This document shows positions 5,036 to 11,473 of a stretch of DNA of 28,807 nucleotides, in pieces. Under the pieces are notes generated by a model. That model ran no database searches and was not told the origin of the DNA. It was given only the letters and a program-made list of their open reading frames with translations. How positions within the stretch are numbered: position 1 is the stretch's first letter; every line of letters starts with the position of its first letter. The stretch comes from Planctomycetota bacterium (GTDB taxonomy: Bacteria > Planctomycetota > UBA8108 > UBA1146 > JAJFFE01): the NCBI GenBank assembly GCA_050246115.1, contig JBFWWP010000018.1:1-28807 (forward strand). The letters run 5' to 3'. The translations under genes were made by a program, and so were the position numbers.

Positions 5036-6163
5036 TTACTGCCCGCGGGCACCCACGCGTAACACGATCCAGGGATACAGCAGGGCGATCAGCAGACCGA
5101 CGCTCACCGCCCAGCGTCCGGCCGTCGTCGAGCCATCGCCCGAAGAGACGAGGCCGAAGTTGTGGGCCAATGCACCCCCGACGACCAAGCCGGCAACGGT
5201 AACGAAAGCATCGCCATTGCCTTCGCCGGTCATGACCATTTGGCGAACTGGACACCCACCGGCGAGACAGCCCGCTAGCCCGACAAGGGCGAGAGACGCG
5301 ATACTCCAAAGCGCGTCGCCGTGGGCCGCGGGCTGGCCTTCGAGCCCGACATGCCCCTGCCCGCCGACGAACACGACCCCACCATAGGCAACGACGAGCG
5401 CACCGGCACCGACCAGCATCAGTTTCCCGCGCACGAAGACCTGGCGCGCGGCCGTGATCGCGCAGAAGCCCGTTGCAGACAACAACGCCCCCGCCACCAC
5501 CGCGATCCCGAGCGCCAACCACCAAACCGCGTGAGGAGGCCCTCCTGCATCGCCGGGGCCAGGCCCGAAAGGCAACCGCGAGAGCAAGAACAAGACGCCG
5601 ATACCCACGAACGTCAGTGGCCCGAGCCAACCGATCGGGGCCGCCACGCCCTCGGTCTTGCCGACCGAGTAGCCGCGCTTCTCGAACCCAACACCCGCGC
5701 CCACCCCGGCCACGAAACCAATCAGGCCGATCCACGCGTTCAGATCGCCACCGCCGAGCCGTTGGAGCATGCGAAACGGACAACCGAGGAACACCAAAGA
5801 ACCGACTGCCATCCAAATCCCGAAGAAGAAGCGCGCGGCCGCGTGGCTTCCCGAGCGAGCCACGAAGCCCCGCGTCGCCGCGACCCAGGCAAGCGCGCCC
5901 AATACGAGCCCGACGAGCTCGGGGCGAAAGATCTTGGGGCCGCTCCCGAACAGCCCGAGTGCGCCTGCTGTGTCGCGCAAGAAGCACGCACCACAGATAC
6001 CCATGTTGCCTGGGTTACCCGCGAGCACCAACGCACCGCAGCCCATCCCCACGACAGCTGCCGCGATCACACCGACCCCGCGAGCAGCGGCGCCAGCGGA
6101 ACGTCGAAGCAGAGGAGGCTCAGCGTTCAAGGTAGCGTACCGGCATGCGTTCCATCCCCCCAA
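5036..6163 (-). CDS. YedE/YeeE-family polytopic membrane protein (putative sulfur-compound / thiosulfate transporter)
   Basis: It is a highly hydrophobic protein of about 375 aa. Two internally repeated halves each carry a conserved-Cys motif (MGICGACFLRD and GLAGCLAGGCPVRQMVMTG), as in YeeE/TsuA. The start is uncertain: TTG at 6163, TTG at 6130 or ATG at 6046. Confidence 0.55.
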   Translation of the reverse strand: MGGWNACRYATLNAEPPLLRRSAGAAARGVGVIAAAVVGMGCGALVLAGNPGNMGICGACFLRDTAGALGLFGSGPKIFRPELVGLVLGALAWVAATRGFVARSGSHAAARFFFGIWMAVGSLVFLGCPFRMLQRLGGGDLNAWIGLIGFVAGVGAGVGFEKRGYSVGKTEGVAAPIGWLGPLTFVGIGVLFLLSRLPFGPGPGDAGGPPHAVWWLALGIAVVAGALLSATGFCAITAARQVFVRGKLMLVGAGALVVAYGGVVFVGGQGHVGLEGQPAAHGDALWSIASLALVGLAGCLAGGCPVRQMVMTGEGNGDAFVTVAGLVVGGALAHNFGLVSSGDGSTTAGRWAVSVGLLIALLYPWIVLRVGARGQ

Positions 6164-6447
6164 GTAGCGAAGTTGCTTGGCATGTCAGTGACACCCATCC
6201 AACCCGTTCGATCGTTCAACGATCCGCCGCCTGGAAAGCTTAAGGGGCGCCCCGAAGTCTGTGAAGCCTCCATCAAACGTCATCCAATTACGCTCCTCGG
6301 GCGGGGAGAGAGCTGCGTGAGCCCAGAGTGAAGCCTCCACCGCGTCCTGCTCCCCTTCCGGGGCGAGTCCTGCCGTGTCACCCATGGGATCGGACAATCG
6401 GTTACCTATGGTTCCGGAATGGACCATGAGATCACCCCACCCCCCCG

Positions 6448-6469
6448 CCCCGCCCCTCGAGGGGCGGGG
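6448..6469. repeat. Perfect 22-bp GC-rich palindrome (CCCCGCCCCTCGAGGGGCGGGG), a possible hairpin terminator between the surface-protein operon and the YeeE cluster
   Basis: Read directly: 11-bp perfect arms around CTC|GAG. It lies in the roughly 1-kb gene-poor gap, downstream of the minus-strand gene ending at 7165. Confidence 0.5.
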
Positions 6470-7164
6470 AGCGCACCTCCTCGAGCTTGGGGTCCCCTCC
6501 AACTGGGCGCTGGAACGACCATCGACTGGCCAGCGACAATTACTCCTGAGGAGCATGCCGTGTCCGCGATCGCGAGCGTTGGATGCGAGGGGCCTGCGCC
6601 CTGTCCGTGAGATCCTGGAAGGGTCCGCGGTGTCTGCGGGCGCAGACAGTCCGACGATGCACTCGGGGATGCACTTGGGTGTAGCGCTCGCGGCATCGTC
6701 TTCGGTCCCCACGGAGCGGAACGACCGCGGCACCGCCGACGGTGGCCTCGAGTGGAGACCTCGGCCCTGGACCGCCGCGACGCGGCTGCGATGCGCCCGT
6801 GAACTGCACGAGCGGTTGCGGTCGCTGGTGAGCGAGGCCCATGAACCAGAGGTCCAAGTGGACAAAGAACCAACCCACTCCCCCCGACCCCGCGACCCGG
6901 TGTCCACGGGCGCAGACACGCAGCGCGTCGAAGCACTCGCAGAGGGCCTGGTTCGCCTCGGCTACCGTCGGTCGGAAGCGGTCGGGAGAGTCGAGCACGC
7001 GCTGGCACAACTGGAAGGGAATGGCTCCGAAGCAGACGATGGTGAAGTCTTGCGCTTCGCGATCTCGTGCGCTTCGCGATCTCGCGGGGTGCGCAGCGCA
7101 TGATCGAACCACCGGGTCGGGCTCCCCTCGAGCGCGGCGCCCCAAGCTTCGCCGTCCAACTCCC

Positions 7165-8922
7165 TTACGGACACGTGAAGCGATGACATTGCAACAAACC
7201 CACCCCGGGATGCGATCCACAATCCGGGTAGGGCGGGGGCGGTACGAAGCTGGACTCGAACAACGTCGCGAGCAGGAGGAGTACGTCGGCCAAACCGGTG
7301 GTGGCGTCCTCGTCGATGTCGACGGCGGCCGCGCAGGATACCGTCGTCCCGAGATAGAGATGTCCCAGCAGGAAGGGCACATCCGCGACATCGACCCGGA
7401 GGTCGCCGTTCGCGTCGCCCCGCACGAACATCGGCACCGGTTCGTTCCCGCGATGAAACGAACCGCCACTGCTGCCGTCATGGCAGAACTGCGGCCACGG
7501 CGCGGGTTGCCCCTGGGTACCGATCGCCGGCTGATCCCACGCAAAGATCTCGTGGTTCCAGGTGTGGATGATCTCCATGTCGCCATCGCCGTCGAGGTCA
7601 GCGAGCGCCGGCACCAGTAGCTCCCTATACGGTGCCACGACGCCCGGAGGAAACGCCTTGGGCCAACCGGGCAACGGCTCGAGCGTCGCACTGTTCAAGA
7701 CATGGAGGGTCCAAGCATCCTCGAGCGGGAGGTCGATGCGGTAGATCGACCACACGACAATCTCTAGCTGCCCATCCCCGTCGACGTCGCCCACCACCGG
7801 CGGTTTGTAGTTGCGGTACGGGAGCACGTCCGAGACCTCCTTCGCCACCACGAAGCCGGAGGTGACGACCGAGTACTGGTGCACCTTCGCCACGCGAAGC
7901 AGGTCGCCCGCCAGTACGACCTCCAACCACCCGTCCGCGTCGAGGTCGGCGACTGCCGGATAGGGATAGGTGACCGAAGGCGCTGCGGTCTCGAAGCGCT
8001 TGATGCCGTCCGGTCGGTACGCATGCAGCCGATAGTAGCCGGGCAGCACGATCTCCGGCTGGTGATCCTGGTCGAGGTCGGCGATCACCGGCGTAAACAC
8101 CTCTCCTCCCGGGTGCGGTTGCAGCGGCCAGCCGGGGCGAACGCTGCCATTACCATCGAGAAGCCACACCGATGGCTCCGTGTAGTTCGGCCCAGAGAAC
8201 GGGACGCCCCAAAAGACGACCACGATCTCCGCTCGACCGTCCAGGTCGACGTCGCCGACTGCCAGCCCCGTGTCGATGAACGAGATGGGGTTCCCGACGT
8301 TCGGCGGCCACGTGAGCGACACCGGCCACCCCGGCTGGACCTGGCCGTCCGAGCCCAACACGTGGATGGTCAGATCAGGGTTGACCGCTTCGACGTAAAC
8401 GAGTTCGTCGAGGCCGTCGCCGTCGAGGTCGCCGAGAGCCATAGAGAGTTCGCTCACGCCATTCGCGGCATCGAGCGCGGGCCAGCCGGGAAGGACGCTG
8501 CCATCCGGTCCGAGCGCGAAGAACACGTCGATACCCGCGCCAGAAGTGTGGACTGCCGATTGATGGGGGCCGGGGACCAGATTGCCCGCGAACATCCGAG
8601 CCGAGCCCTCAACGGGGGAAGTCCAGTTGGGCACGAGCTGACCGTTAGTCAGGTATGCACGCGGCCCTTCCAACGGATTTCCCGATGGCACGACGATCTC
8701 AGGGGCTGCGTCCCCGTACACGTTCGCAACGATTGGGATGAACGAGTGGGCGACGGGGCCGATCTCGAAGGGCCAACCGGGCACGAGCGCAGCCTCGCCC
8801 TGCGCAAGCAGACGCCCTCCGAACGGGCCCCCGGCGAGCGGCATCAGGATGAGAACGCCGATCCATCTCCTCAGCGGAGCGGTCTCGCGACTCACTGACT
8901 GGAACGATCGGCTCATCGTCAT
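7165..8922 (-). CDS. Secreted FG-GAP/VCBS-repeat beta-propeller protein with a C-terminal dockerin-like module and Cys-rich tail
   Basis: The N-terminus MTMSRSFQSVSRETAPLRRWIGVLILMPLAGG is a signal peptide with an RR motif, so it may be Tat-exported. It has repeated Ca-binding loops (DLDGDGLDELV, DVDLDGRAEIV, DLDADGWLEVV, DVDGDGQLEIV, DLDGDGDMEII) and recurrent PGWP motifs, typical of an integrin-alpha-like 7-blade propeller. The C-terminus FVRGDANGDLRVDVADVPFLLGHLYLG...IDEDATTGLADVLLLLATLF is a dockerin-type double Ca-loop, followed by PPPPYPDCGSHPGVGLLQCHRFTCP. The ATG at 8920-8922 is preceded by AGAAGG, and the gene starts 23 nt after the upstream gene's stop. Confidence 0.8.
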   Translation of the reverse strand: MTMSRSFQSVSRETAPLRRWIGVLILMPLAGGPFGGRLLAQGEAALVPGWPFEIGPVAHSFIPIVANVYGDAAPEIVVPSGNPLEGPRAYLTNGQLVPNWTSPVEGSARMFAGNLVPGPHQSAVHTSGAGIDVFFALGPDGSVLPGWPALDAANGVSELSMALGDLDGDGLDELVYVEAVNPDLTIHVLGSDGQVQPGWPVSLTWPPNVGNPISFIDTGLAVGDVDLDGRAEIVVVFWGVPFSGPNYTEPSVWLLDGNGSVRPGWPLQPHPGGEVFTPVIADLDQDHQPEIVLPGYYRLHAYRPDGIKRFETAAPSVTYPYPAVADLDADGWLEVVLAGDLLRVAKVHQYSVVTSGFVVAKEVSDVLPYRNYKPPVVGDVDGDGQLEIVVWSIYRIDLPLEDAWTLHVLNSATLEPLPGWPKAFPPGVVAPYRELLVPALADLDGDGDMEIIHTWNHEIFAWDQPAIGTQGQPAPWPQFCHDGSSGGSFHRGNEPVPMFVRGDANGDLRVDVADVPFLLGHLYLGTTVSCAAAVDIDEDATTGLADVLLLLATLFESSFVPPPPYPDCGSHPGVGLLQCHRFTCP

Positions 8923-8945
8923 GGCTTCGCCTTCTCACGACCCAC

Positions 8946-11177
8946 CTACGGGCAATTGTTGAAGCTCGCGTCGACGCAGTACTCCGGAGTCGCCTCCGGG
9001 GTCTCATCCGGACCACACGTCGGAAACGGAGCGGGCGGCGGCGGTCCCCCGCTGAAGAGGTAGCCCAGAAGGTAGACCGAGTCCGCAAGGTTGACCGTGT
9101 CCATGTCGTTCGCGTCGTACGCATCAAGGCAGTTCTGGAGCGCTTGGCCACTGAACAAGTAGGCCAATAGCACGACCGCATCGGAGAGATTGAGGACCCC
9201 GTCGCCGTTGGCATCCCCACGGACGAACGGCACCGTTGCTTCGTCTGCACCGCGATCCGAGCCGGCACCCGCGACACCGAGGATATCCAGCGCCCTCGGT
9301 TCACCATCGATGTCGGCGGTGAGCGTGTAGGTCAAGCCAGGGTCAGCGCTGTCGATGGCGGGGGATGTCTTTCCGGCGATGTGGTAGTCGGTGCCCAGTC
9401 CTGGCAGAGTCGCTACCGTAGCGAAGCCCTCCAGGTTTGCCCCGCCCACCGCCGGACTGAAGGGAGGCAGCAACGAGTAGCTCAGCGCGGTCGCCGTCGG
9501 TGCTTGCGGCAGTTCCGCGAAGTACTCGAGTTCATGCCCGGCTGCAAATGGCAGCACATTGTTCCGAACAACGTTCGAGGTGCCCGCAAACGTCGACCCG
9601 CTTGCGACGAAGAGGCCGGCGCCCAGGCCTCCTTGATCGAGCTCGTTCAAGGTGAGAGTGTTCGCATCCATGCGAAACGCGCCGGGCCCTGGGCTCTGTT
9701 GTGCACTCACGTACGCGCCGCCTCCCCGCACCCGTGCCGTGTTGCGATAGATGGCGTTCCCCTCGACGAAAATCACGGAAAAGCTGGTCAGTTGGGCGTC
9801 GACGAACAGGCCTCCGCCAGACTCCGTCGCGGGCCCCGCCCCTGCGTCGAAGGGCGGATCGACCTGCACGTCGTGGTCGCGGATCTCGTTGCCCACGATC
9901 GAGACCGCGAAGGCCACGGGTGGAGTAATGTTCGTCGCCTCCAGGTACAGTCCAAGGCCCGCGTACCGGCTGCCGCCGACCGAAACCGGAAGAAGCGGCA
10001 ACCAGGTCTCGTTCTCACGGATTAGATTGGCGATCACCTCGAGCGTGGTCGCTGGCGGCGATGGCAGTGTGGGCCGGAGAAACAGGTACACGCCGGCACC
10101 CTCCTGAGCCGTGTTCCGGGCGACGTCGTTCCGACAGATCACCCACTGGCTGCCGCCGTCCACCACTTCCAGCGCGATCCCGCCGCCACGCCGCGGAACT
10201 TGCTCTCCGACGTCGCCGAAGACGTTGTCGACAACCGTGTTGTCGGCAATGACCGCGTCTCCTCCCTGCTGGTAGACGCCCGCTCCGAGAAACGCGCTGG
10301 GTCCGCCGACTGCACCGGTGACCTCATTGTTCGCGATGAGGTTGTGAGCCACTACGCTGTCCAGGCCGTCCGTGAAGATCATGGCTACGCCACCCCCGCC
10401 AAGCAGAGCATCATTGTCGACGATCTCGTTGCCAAGAATCGAAACGGGAGCTTGGATGACGCGAATGCCGCCCCCGTGGTCAAGGCCGGTGCCCAGCGTG
10501 ATCCTGAAACCGTGGCGTACGACTCCACTCGTCGATGCGACCACCGCGCCAATCTGTACGCGACCGGCGGTGGACTGGGCGCAGAAAGATGGTGCGCCTT
10601 GCTCGATCACGATCCCACCATTGACTATCGTGCTTGCCGGCCCTCCGGAAGCAAAGAGCGTCAGCCCACGTGGAAAGCACTTCGGGTCGATCGTCACCGA
10701 GGTGTAAGTGCCGGGTTCGACCTGAATCACGTACGGGATGGTCGGGATCAGGGCCGCTCCGATGTCAACTGCGAGTTGAATCGCATTGGGCGTCGTTGGA
10801 CCGACGATCGCGTCGACAGGACTTGGAAGGGAACTCGGTGCCGGAGGCGCGCATCCTTGGCTTCCCTGGGCCGACTGGGTTTGACCCTCCGAGCCCTCGG
10901 GGGGTGCAGCGGCAACCGGCTCATTCGGCCCGGGTGACTCGCTGGCTGGCGGAGGCAGTTGAGCAGCGGAGCTGCCGAAGTAGTCACTCGCATCGAGGAG
11001 TCCGCCGAACCTGGGGGTGCAGTGGCTCAGAAGCGTCGAGAGGGAGCCGCCCTGGACGAGCCACCAGTCGACGATGAACCGATCGATCTCGTTGGCTTGC
11101 CCGTCACCATCCACGTCGATCAACGCCAACAAAGTGTGCGGAGCCTCGGCACGAGCCGGACACGGGCTCCCGATCAC
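8946..11177 (-). CDS. Secreted right-handed parallel beta-helix repeat protein with an N-terminal EF-hand-like loop and a C-terminal dockerin-like module plus Cys-rich tail; the N-terminus depends on the phase of the upstream (CCTT)n tract
   Basis: It shows the periodic beta-helix repeats IVDND, IANNEVTG, IADNTVVDN, ICRNDVARN, IVGNEIRDH, IYRNTA and VRNNV. The N-terminus carries DVDGDGQANEID, and the C-terminus carries VRGDANGDGVLNLSDAVVLLAYLF...DANDMDTVNLADSVYLLGYLFSGGPPPPAPFPTCGPDETPEATPEYCVDASFNNCP. The annotated start is an in-frame GTG at 11177 with poor SD spacing. The in-frame upstream sequence encodes a perfect signal peptide but lacks an in-frame ATG in the present repeat state. Confidence 0.75.
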   Translation of the reverse strand: MIGSPCPARAEAPHTLLALIDVDGDGQANEIDRFIVDWWLVQGGSLSTLLSHCTPRFGGLLDASDYFGSSAAQLPPPASESPGPNEPVAAAPPEGSEGQTQSAQGSQGCAPPAPSSLPSPVDAIVGPTTPNAIQLAVDIGAALIPTIPYVIQVEPGTYTSVTIDPKCFPRGLTLFASGGPASTIVNGGIVIEQGAPSFCAQSTAGRVQIGAVVASTSGVVRHGFRITLGTGLDHGGGIRVIQAPVSILGNEIVDNDALLGGGGVAMIFTDGLDSVVAHNLIANNEVTGAVGGPSAFLGAGVYQQGGDAVIADNTVVDNVFGDVGEQVPRRGGGIALEVVDGGSQWVICRNDVARNTAQEGAGVYLFLRPTLPSPPATTLEVIANLIRENETWLPLLPVSVGGSRYAGLGLYLEATNITPPVAFAVSIVGNEIRDHDVQVDPPFDAGAGPATESGGGLFVDAQLTSFSVIFVEGNAIYRNTARVRGGGAYVSAQQSPGPGAFRMDANTLTLNELDQGGLGAGLFVASGSTFAGTSNVVRNNVLPFAAGHELEYFAELPQAPTATALSYSLLPPFSPAVGGANLEGFATVATLPGLGTDYHIAGKTSPAIDSADPGLTYTLTADIDGEPRALDILGVAGAGSDRGADEATVPFVRGDANGDGVLNLSDAVVLLAYLFSGQALQNCLDAYDANDMDTVNLADSVYLLGYLFSGGPPPPAPFPTCGPDETPEATPEYCVDASFNNCP

Positions 11178-11212: not shown

Positions 11213-11232
11213 AAGGAAGGAAGGAAGGAAGG
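11213..11232 (-). repeat. Tetranucleotide microsatellite (CCTT)5 on the coding strand (AAGG x5 on +, followed by an imperfect AAAG), a candidate slipped-strand phase-variation tract
   Basis: Read directly at 11213-11232. It lies between two ATG codons (first bases at 11259 and 11242, minus strand) and the beta-helix protein reading frame. Confidence 0.9.
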
Positions 11233-11473
11233 AAAGTCGCATAACGTCACCACCTTCATCTCTTGGGAAGCCACAGGCGCCACTCCGGAAATCATCGCCT
11301 CGCCCACGCGACAAGTCAACCTGCCCCTCAGGCCAGCAACGACCGAAGTCGCTGGTGCAACGTCTTTGCTTCGACGCATCCGCGGGCGTGACCCCGTCGC
11401 CAACTTCCCCGCAGCGCCAAGTCTACTGTCGGGGCCAACGCCTTTCGCTGCTCGCCTGGGCAATCGGGGCGTG

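Follow-up and report, generated by a model that had tools for sequence, protein, structure and literature searches.

Type I dockerins of the clostridial and ruminococcal cellulosomes (PF00404; PDB 2ccl_B, 4fl4 and 5m2o_B) are built from a duplicated F-hand, a 12-residue calcium loop plus a helix twice over; they usually stand at the C-terminus of secreted cargo, and their cohesins are found in the same genomes or polypeptides. In the 'intramolecular clasp' of dockerins, residues -3 to -1 before loop 1 pack on a C-terminal proline or charged residue, and mutation of the clasp destabilises the dockerin and weakens its cohesin binding about ten-fold (Slutzki et al. 2013, PMC3821032). For freshwater Planctomycetes a non-cellulosomal cohesin/dockerin system with M12/M14 peptidases and lamin-tail domain (LTD) proteins has been proposed, the 'planctosome' (Andrei et al. 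2019, PMC6461901); that paper names cohesin or dockerin in four places only, none of which concerns a cysteine/proline extension, disulfide variants or a [Doc-Coh]n-Doc architecture. Here we describe two adjacent genes in a 28,807-nt stretch of contig JBFWWP010000018.1 from a Planctomycetota bacterium (assembly GCA_050246115.1; the whole stretch is referred to as the window), which encode an FG-GAP beta-propeller protein and a right-handed beta-helix protein with homologous C-terminal modules. In the reading that we favour, with a probability of about 0.6, both proteins end in a calcium-binding, type I-like dockerin that is held by a disulfide clasp and would be docked on cohesins in a 'planctosome'-type system.

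The genes and the modules they encode are arranged as follows, in window coordinates:

8946..11177, minus strand: beta-helix protein gene, 743 aa, GTG start (MGE3963000.1, 'hypothetical protein')
8923..8945, minus strand: intergenic spacer of the gene pair, 23 nt
7165..8922, minus strand: FG-GAP beta-propeller protein gene, 585 aa (MGE3963001.1, 'FG-GAP-like repeat-containing protein')
9045..9227, minus strand: dockerin core of the beta-helix protein (F651-G711), with FVRGDANGDG loop 1, helix, C683, degenerate loop 2 DANDMDTVNLAD and helix
8949..9044, minus strand: Pro-rich Cys extension of the beta-helix protein (P712-P743), PPPPAPFPTC721G...YC734...NC742P, conserved family-wide and with Cys covariation
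7243..7428, minus strand: dockerin core of the propeller protein (F499-V560), in which C530 stands between the loops and loop 2 (DIDEDATTGLAD) is degenerate, from BLASTP against the beta-helix tail, AlphaFold2 (AF2) and Foldseek
7168..7242, minus strand: Pro-rich Cys extension of the propeller protein (P561-P585), PPPPYPDC568G...QC579...TC584P
8800-8922, minus strand: signal-peptide-like segment of the propeller protein, residues ~1-41, read by eye (n-region with Arg, hydrophobic core, LAQ/G)

The same DNA lies within contig JBFWPE010000004.1 of GCA_050250155.1, a metagenome-assembled genome of Planctomycetota, and the two protein accessions given above belong to that record. The passengers are recognised by Pfam through FG-GAP_3/FG-GAP repeats in the propeller protein and a Beta_helix match at residues 235-364 of the beta-helix protein. 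Their C-terminal tails are homologous (40% identity over 89 aa, BLASTP E 1e-9). This bears out an earlier model reading of the letters alone, hereafter the original prediction, which had seen in both proteins a dockerin-like C-terminal module with a proline run and a Cys-rich end; the C-terminal sequences it quoted proved exact, and the adjacency of two minus-strand open reading frames (ORFs) 23 nt apart was confirmed. Outside the last ~90 residues BLASTP finds no alignment between the two proteins, and the module search found the tail in no other ORF of the window. The tail is indeed rich in cysteines, but the three-cysteine system of the original prediction has to be amended to four conserved cysteines, including the inter-loop residue (C683 or C530). 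Might the likeness be a chance or low-complexity match between a proline run and a few cysteines? The shortness of the tail speaks for this and nothing else does, while the BLASTP score, 24 homologues reaching E 1e-25 in a single-sequence search, 30,813 profile clusters at E ≤ 1e-10 and the conservation of the motif positions throughout the family rule it out for all practical purposes. The original prediction had taken a tail confined to these two proteins as the mark of chance; the tail is shared by another protein encoded on this contig, by the one distant homologue found for the beta-helix protein and by further proteins numbering in the tens of thousands.

The assignment to the dockerins draws on Pfam, on a family profile and on the fold. 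Dockerin_1 matches residues 654-701 of the full-length beta-helix protein with 23.8 bits, against a gathering (GA) cut-off of 22.9, and gives 20.4 bits when that tail is scanned alone. The propeller tail alone remains below threshold (E 0.095), and since Pfam is insufficient here its assignment is drawn from the profile and the fold; the Dockerin_1 search suggested in the original prediction thus gave a direct match for one protein and left the other to these two lines of support. The family profile, built from both window tails and 23 metagenomic homologues, retrieves type I dockerins from the PDB at E 6e-8 to 1e-3, EF-hand proteins more weakly and nothing else. These matches cover profile positions 27-82 and all end near 82-86; no solved dockerin aligns past position ~86, and the Pro/Cys part is covered by no solved chain. 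Structure prediction, likewise suggested beforehand, was carried out for both tails and returned models that are confident over the core, with a mean predicted local distance difference test (pLDDT) score of 85.4 and 86.1 (86 for the propeller core). The module has the three-helix dockerin fold, and the top 28 Foldseek PDB matches of the propeller tail model are all dockerins. Two calcium loops had been claimed for each tail: the first keeps the canonical residues in either protein (DANGDGVLNLSD and DANGDLRVDVAD), but loop 2 is degenerate in both, as DANDMDTVNLAD of the beta-helix protein lacks the ligand at position 5, where it has M, and DIDEDATTGLAD of the propeller protein has A for G at position 6.

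What sets this variant apart from the cellulosomal type I dockerins are about 30 extra residues past helix 3, PPPPxP[FY]PxxGxDPTxDxLxC, and one to three probable disulfides; its hosts are aerobic or aquatic Planctomycetota, and its cargo is not cellulolytic. The variant can be defined by the FxRGD start, the inter-loop cysteine, the PPPPxP[FY]P strap, the GxDPTxDxLxC motif and an optional CG...C pair. Both window tails belong to it, aligning to positions 9/13 to 108/109 of the family hidden Markov model (HMM) and carrying all four cysteines, with the DPT motif degenerate in both (PDETPEATPEYC and SHPGVGLLQC). In an exhaustive search of 1.84 billion representative proteins the profile matched 55,558 clusters with E ≤ 1e-3; a limit of E ≤ 1e-10 leaves 30,813 of them and one of E ≤ 1e-30 leaves 1,093. 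The matches commonly extend to positions 108-114 and recur two to 12 times per protein. A canonical clostridial dockerin scores ~36 bits on this profile, which scales to E ~6e-4 in the large library; on the same scaling the matches at E ≤ 1e-10 correspond to ~58 bits or more, far above a canonical dockerin core. Most of them are probably the variant described here, and some could be proteins with several ordinary dockerins.

The original prediction considered that the tail might be a sorting or anchoring tag. In that case the Pro/Cys segment would be a C-terminal sorting or export signal with its own machinery, like the C-terminal domains of the type IX secretion system (T9SS CTDs) or PEP-CTERM and MYXO-CTERM, and the usual position of the module agrees with this. 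In a set of genome loci (one genome per species, located with the exact pattern FVRGDANGD and therefore a narrow slice of the family; 121 loci confirmed, 80 kept, with ±4 kb flanks), the module stands at the very C-terminus in 98 of the 113 complete ORFs; Cys-Pro-stop is the commonest ending, and weak choice-of-anchor domains precede the module (choice_anch_Q at E 0.065 in the beta-helix protein, choice_anch_J in 2/69 members). A different picture emerges from a local HMM. Run on 176 proteins, made up of the 150 top scorers, the 24 homologues retrieved first and the window pair, it located 517 modules, 357 of which reach the tail, and 215 of these 357 are internal or N-terminal; in tandem arrays (proteins P0028 and P0035) the next FxRGD begins directly after ...C-x5-C-P. 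The sorting-tag reading is rejected because tail-bearing copies occur internally and N-terminally, and we regard it as very improbable. Read from the sequence, the tail holds no hydrophobic or charged anchor segment; none of the Pfam and NCBIfam models for sorting signals (PEP-CTERM, MYXO-CTERM, GlyGly-CTERM, LPXTG and T9SS CTD) matches either window protein at E ≤ 1; and a one-disulfide form exists that lacks both the last cysteine and the 'CP'. The tails alone have no Pfam or NCBIfam match at E ≤ 10, and to this extent the original prediction was right that they resemble no described sorting signal. The proline run and the cysteine tail are part of the dockerin domain rather than a separate sorting or anchoring tag, an assessment which the covariation of tail and core cysteines also favours. 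The weak choice-of-anchor Q match lies at window positions 9239-9391 (residues 596-646), directly before the dockerin, with 13.5 bits against an NCBIfam cut-off of 25.

The cysteines were counted in pairs (both present / first only / second only / neither) in the top-scoring set and in 114 distinct genome-locus modules. The inter-loop and mid-tail cysteines give 316/11/12/16 in the top-scoring set and 102/1/0/2 in the genome loci. For the 'CG' cysteine and the last cysteine, which stands 5-7 residues past the mid-tail one, the counts are 92/3/9/224 and 65/0/2/38 (Fisher p 1.4e-26 for the genome loci, a value that overstates independence since related sequences are counted together), and an optional third pair, RGDC with xCD, gives 17/6/8/324 and 7/1/3/94. 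The pairing pattern recurs across proteins with unrelated cargo. The tail cysteines are probably structural because they covary with a cysteine inside the dockerin core, and the family would comprise forms with one, two or three disulfides, the form with two being that of the window pair. 'CP' ends 20 of the 43 C-terminal two-disulfide modules of the genome loci and is the commonest ending; other modules end in CE, CL or a bare C. The AF2 model of the propeller tail supports the pairing, as bridges assigned by DSSP connect C45 with C94 (the inter-loop and mid-tail cysteines) and F14/V15 with C83/G84 (tail numbering).

The most economical reading of the tail would be a dockerin clasp made covalent by disulfides. 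The polypeptide past the second helix, P-P-P-P-x-P-[FY]-P-x-[C/x]-G-x-D-P-T-x-D-x-L-x-C(-x5-6-C), would fold back along the domain and bring the Pro-rich stretch and the 'CG' onto the F-V with which FVRGD begins. A disulfide would join the mid-tail cysteine to the cysteine between the calcium loops, and in the longer form, that of the window proteins, a second would join the 'CG' cysteine to the last one. The tail may in this way act as an elaborated, covalent 'intramolecular clasp', suited to an oxidising, extracytoplasmic location. As in the clasp described by Slutzki et al. (2013, PMC3821032), the residues before loop 1 (here F-V-R of FVRGD) would close the module by contact with C-terminal prolines, and the AF2 models set the Pro/'CG' segment against F/V. 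Unlike the known clasps, which are single non-covalent contacts (aromatic-proline stacking or a salt bridge), the one proposed here takes the form of an extended Pro-rich strap that disulfides apparently lock in place. No paper was found that links dockerins, Planctomycetes and cysteines or disulfides, and neither Pfam, NCBIfam and the PDB nor the literature open to search appears to describe the clasped extension with its covarying cysteine pairs.

NCBIfam holds a curated, lineage-specific dockerin variant, NF041540 ('GC-type dockerin domain-anchored protein'), whose name implies a C-terminal anchor as well. The window tails do not match it at E ≤ 10, protein P0012 reaches 12.9 bits against a cut-off of 29, and 3/69 members match, at best with E 0.0023. 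Membership was rejected on these scores, all below the 29-bit cut-off, which point to a different subfamily; a literature search for 'GC-type dockerin' returned no paper.

The propeller and beta-helix proteins are ordinary cargo members of this family. Nearly all of the 80 loci come from metagenome-assembled genomes (MAGs) of Planctomycetota, several of which have four to seven loci each, and in 31 of the 80 loci two or more carriers of the module lie within the ±4 kb flank; the variant is very abundant in the phylum. According to Pfam the cargo of 69 carriers comprises FG-GAP (7), beta-helix (4), LTD (4) and Kazal inhibitors (3), next to M14 and M12 peptidases, a subtilase (S8), purple acid phosphatase, PKD, Kelch and a MauG-type peroxidase. 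Dockerin_1 detects 23/69 of these carriers, and public records name the members 'hypothetical protein' or, where they say more, 'dockerin type I domain/repeat-containing protein'. The module was also met in MAGs labelled Bacillota, Zixibacteriota, Gammaproteobacteria, Ignavibacteria, Thermoanaerobaculia and as a Poseidoniia archaeon (loci L006, L060, L065, L070 and L071; proteins P0206 and P0228), which may reflect either true spread or mis-binning.

Pfam Cohesin and the module occur together in P0033, P0042 and P0027, and a cohesin HMM seeded on the Cohesin regions of module-bearing proteins uncovered a [dockerin-cohesin]n-dockerin alternation in 100 of the 176 top proteins (for example P0029, P0031, P0033 and P0087; also L019 409-4288 and L061 2297-4261). 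In the genome loci it found cohesin-like domains in 22/80, and 25 times within a module-bearing ORF; when a profile of these domains was compared with the PDB, 14/14 matches were cohesins. As an aside, the alternating architecture could permit head-to-tail polymerisation. Both the cohesin co-occurrence and the cargo match and extend the planctosome proposal: phylum and kind of cohesin/dockerin protein are the same, and M12 reprolysin, M14 carboxypeptidase and LTD cargo are common to both, whereas the FG-GAP and beta-helix cargo of the window falls outside that model (PMC6461901). In our favoured reading the module would dock its cargo, here the propeller and the beta-helix, non-covalently onto cohesins of scaffold proteins of the same organism, giving a 'planctosome'-type surface or extracellular assembly.

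The original prediction also entertained a docking module that acts independently of cohesins, which sits badly with a module that shares polypeptides with cohesin domains; its proposal to look for cohesins in the genome turned them up together with the module elsewhere, but not in the 48 kb of the source contig that were read. A dockerin-fold, calcium-dependent domain that does not bind cohesin in this organism, and instead binds a glycan of the cell wall or capsule, an S-layer or another protein, or simply stabilises its cargo, is the alternative to be taken most seriously, although we consider it unlikely. Many non-cellulosomal dockerins are orphans in this sense. In the present case no cohesin is found within the 48 kb, 58 of the 80 genome loci are without one within 4 kb, carriers of dockerins appear to exceed carriers of cohesins in the loci (116 vs 26 ORFs), and the second calcium loop is degenerate in both window proteins. 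However, cellulosomes too have many more dockerin genes than cohesin genes, the former dispersed and apart from the latter, which makes the absence of a nearby cohesin uninformative. The same tailed variant alternates with cohesins in 100/176 top proteins and in 25 genome ORFs, an arrangement that is hard to explain without a cohesin-dockerin interaction.

Several points nevertheless weigh against a cohesin-docked, disulfide-clasped dockerin. There is no cohesin in the window or in 10 kb on either side of it. The loss of canonical loop 2 ligands makes two-site calcium binding and dual-mode cohesin binding uncertain for the two proteins. Within the AF2 models the tails have a pLDDT of 66-79, and the pairing was read from DSSP bridges. 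The covariation counts take in related sequences, as said, and the list of the 150 top proteins is skewed toward multi-copy proteins. P0179 (L084 396-2411) is an exception to the pairing rule, with inter-loop, 'CG' and last cysteines but no mid-tail cysteine; it is the closest and only homologue found for the beta-helix passenger, a distant one with 33% identity, and has a signal peptide and the same module.

A third carrier of the module is encoded on the same contig, ~5.4 kb beyond window position 1 (L085 16289-18730, minus strand), an 810-aa FG-GAP/CARDB protein with a clear signal peptide. Its tail is of the three-disulfide (6-Cys) form, ...FVRGDCNGDG...CRDACDTNDDG...FACDIDPTDTDALGCETFAACP, and ends ...CETFAACP. 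The gene adjoins those for an extracytoplasmic function (ECF) sigma factor and a 985-aa protein of CarboxypepD_reg repeats.

The original prediction regarded the pair as secreted, probably co-transcribed and, by its looks, part of a variable surface-display locus. Co-transcription is plausible from the 23-nt gap and the absence of a terminator-like site between the genes, the promoter/terminator scan having given nothing above shuffled expectation. As to secretion, the propeller protein has its signal-peptide-like segment, but the annotated GTG start of the beta-helix gene (11177) yields an N-terminus without a signal peptide. Upstream the frame is open to 11246, contains no canonical start codon, and codes for a leader-like segment ...FLPSFLPCLVTGAVLSAIGVIGSPCPARA/EAP (the slash marks the putative cleavage site). 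Secretion of the beta-helix protein is conditional, as no in-frame start codon precedes the signal-peptide-like segment. The elements of this region are:

11213..11234, minus strand: perfect (CCTT)5.5 tetranucleotide repeat, found with TRF, within the signal-peptide-coding segment
11257..11259, minus strand: ATG 11259, candidate start, in the +1 frame at 5 repeat units
11082..11117, minus strand: DVDGDGQANEID, a lone EF-hand-like calcium loop with the canonical 12-residue motif, close to the N-terminus of the mature beta-helix protein, ~10 residues past the putative leader cleavage and followed by a helix-like segment

When the copy number is changed in silico to 4 or 7 units, the frame opened by ATG 11259 runs on into the ORF (MKVVTLCDFPSFLPCLVTG..., MKVVTLCDF...ARA/EAP). 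No other simple repeat that would shift a reading frame was found in the 629 kb of the window and related loci. A promoter-like site at 11319-11291 is no more than expected by chance. The CTCTT repeats of the Neisseria opa genes are an established case of phase variation by a simple repeat in the signal-peptide coding region. The window repeat is alike in that a non-triplet (CCTT)5 in the leader-coding segment decides the frame of the ATG; unlike opa, it stands alone in a phylum for which switches of this kind are not established, no variation has been seen, and an assembly error or pseudogene is equally possible. If borne out, it would to our knowledge be the first contingency-locus phase variation in Planctomycetota. 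Both the NCBI MAG and the Logan assembly of SRR27751815 have 5 units, although the two may not be independent. A phase-variation switch caught 'off', a fixed frameshift (pseudogene) and a consensus error would fit equally well, and the notion of a variable surface-display locus is left with one frame-shifting repeat in one gene in its favour and two assemblies of the same copy number against it. The EF-hand-like loop near the N-terminus, also pointed out in the original prediction, is present but reaches significance with no family (EF-hand_5 E 0.77; module HMM sub-match E ~100); the idea that this DVDGDG loop is half a dockerin was rejected for lack of significance.

The neighbours of the gene pair have housekeeping and transport functions and include MFS/PTR2 (major facilitator superfamily), MacB/FtsX and ATP-binding cassette (ABC) transporters, a glycosyltransferase, a pseudouridine synthase, a Band 7 protein and an M42 peptidase. 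A gap of 1.1 kb with no called gene (6071-7164), downstream of the propeller gene, contains a perfect direct repeat (17 nt x 2), TGCGCTTCGCGATCTCG, at 7051-7084.

Put together at its widest, the picture would be one of a phylum-wide extracellular assembly of disulfide-clasped dockerins and divergent cohesins, in which [Dockerin-cohesin]n-dockerin scaffolds polymerise, the cargo is non-cellulolytic and the beta-helix gene is switched by (CCTT)n slippage; as a whole we hold this to be rather doubtful. The dockerin domain and the planctosome idea were known, and the novelty, of modest interest, lies in the clasped, lineage-specific dockerin extension with its covarying cysteines. In place of a candidate for a new sorting signal there is now a structural feature that can be tested. 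Dockerins locked by natural disulfides may be of interest in the design of cohesin-dockerin assemblies, for which disulfides have been engineered to gain stability. The Pro-rich strap and its one to three covarying disulfides mark a planctomycetal branch of dockerins about two thirds of which the Pfam model misses. A dedicated profile would allow tens of thousands of 'hypothetical' metagenomic proteins to be recognised as cohesin-docked extracellular proteins, and would provide a handle on how the surface and secreted proteome of Planctomycetota is organised, the planctosome idea included.

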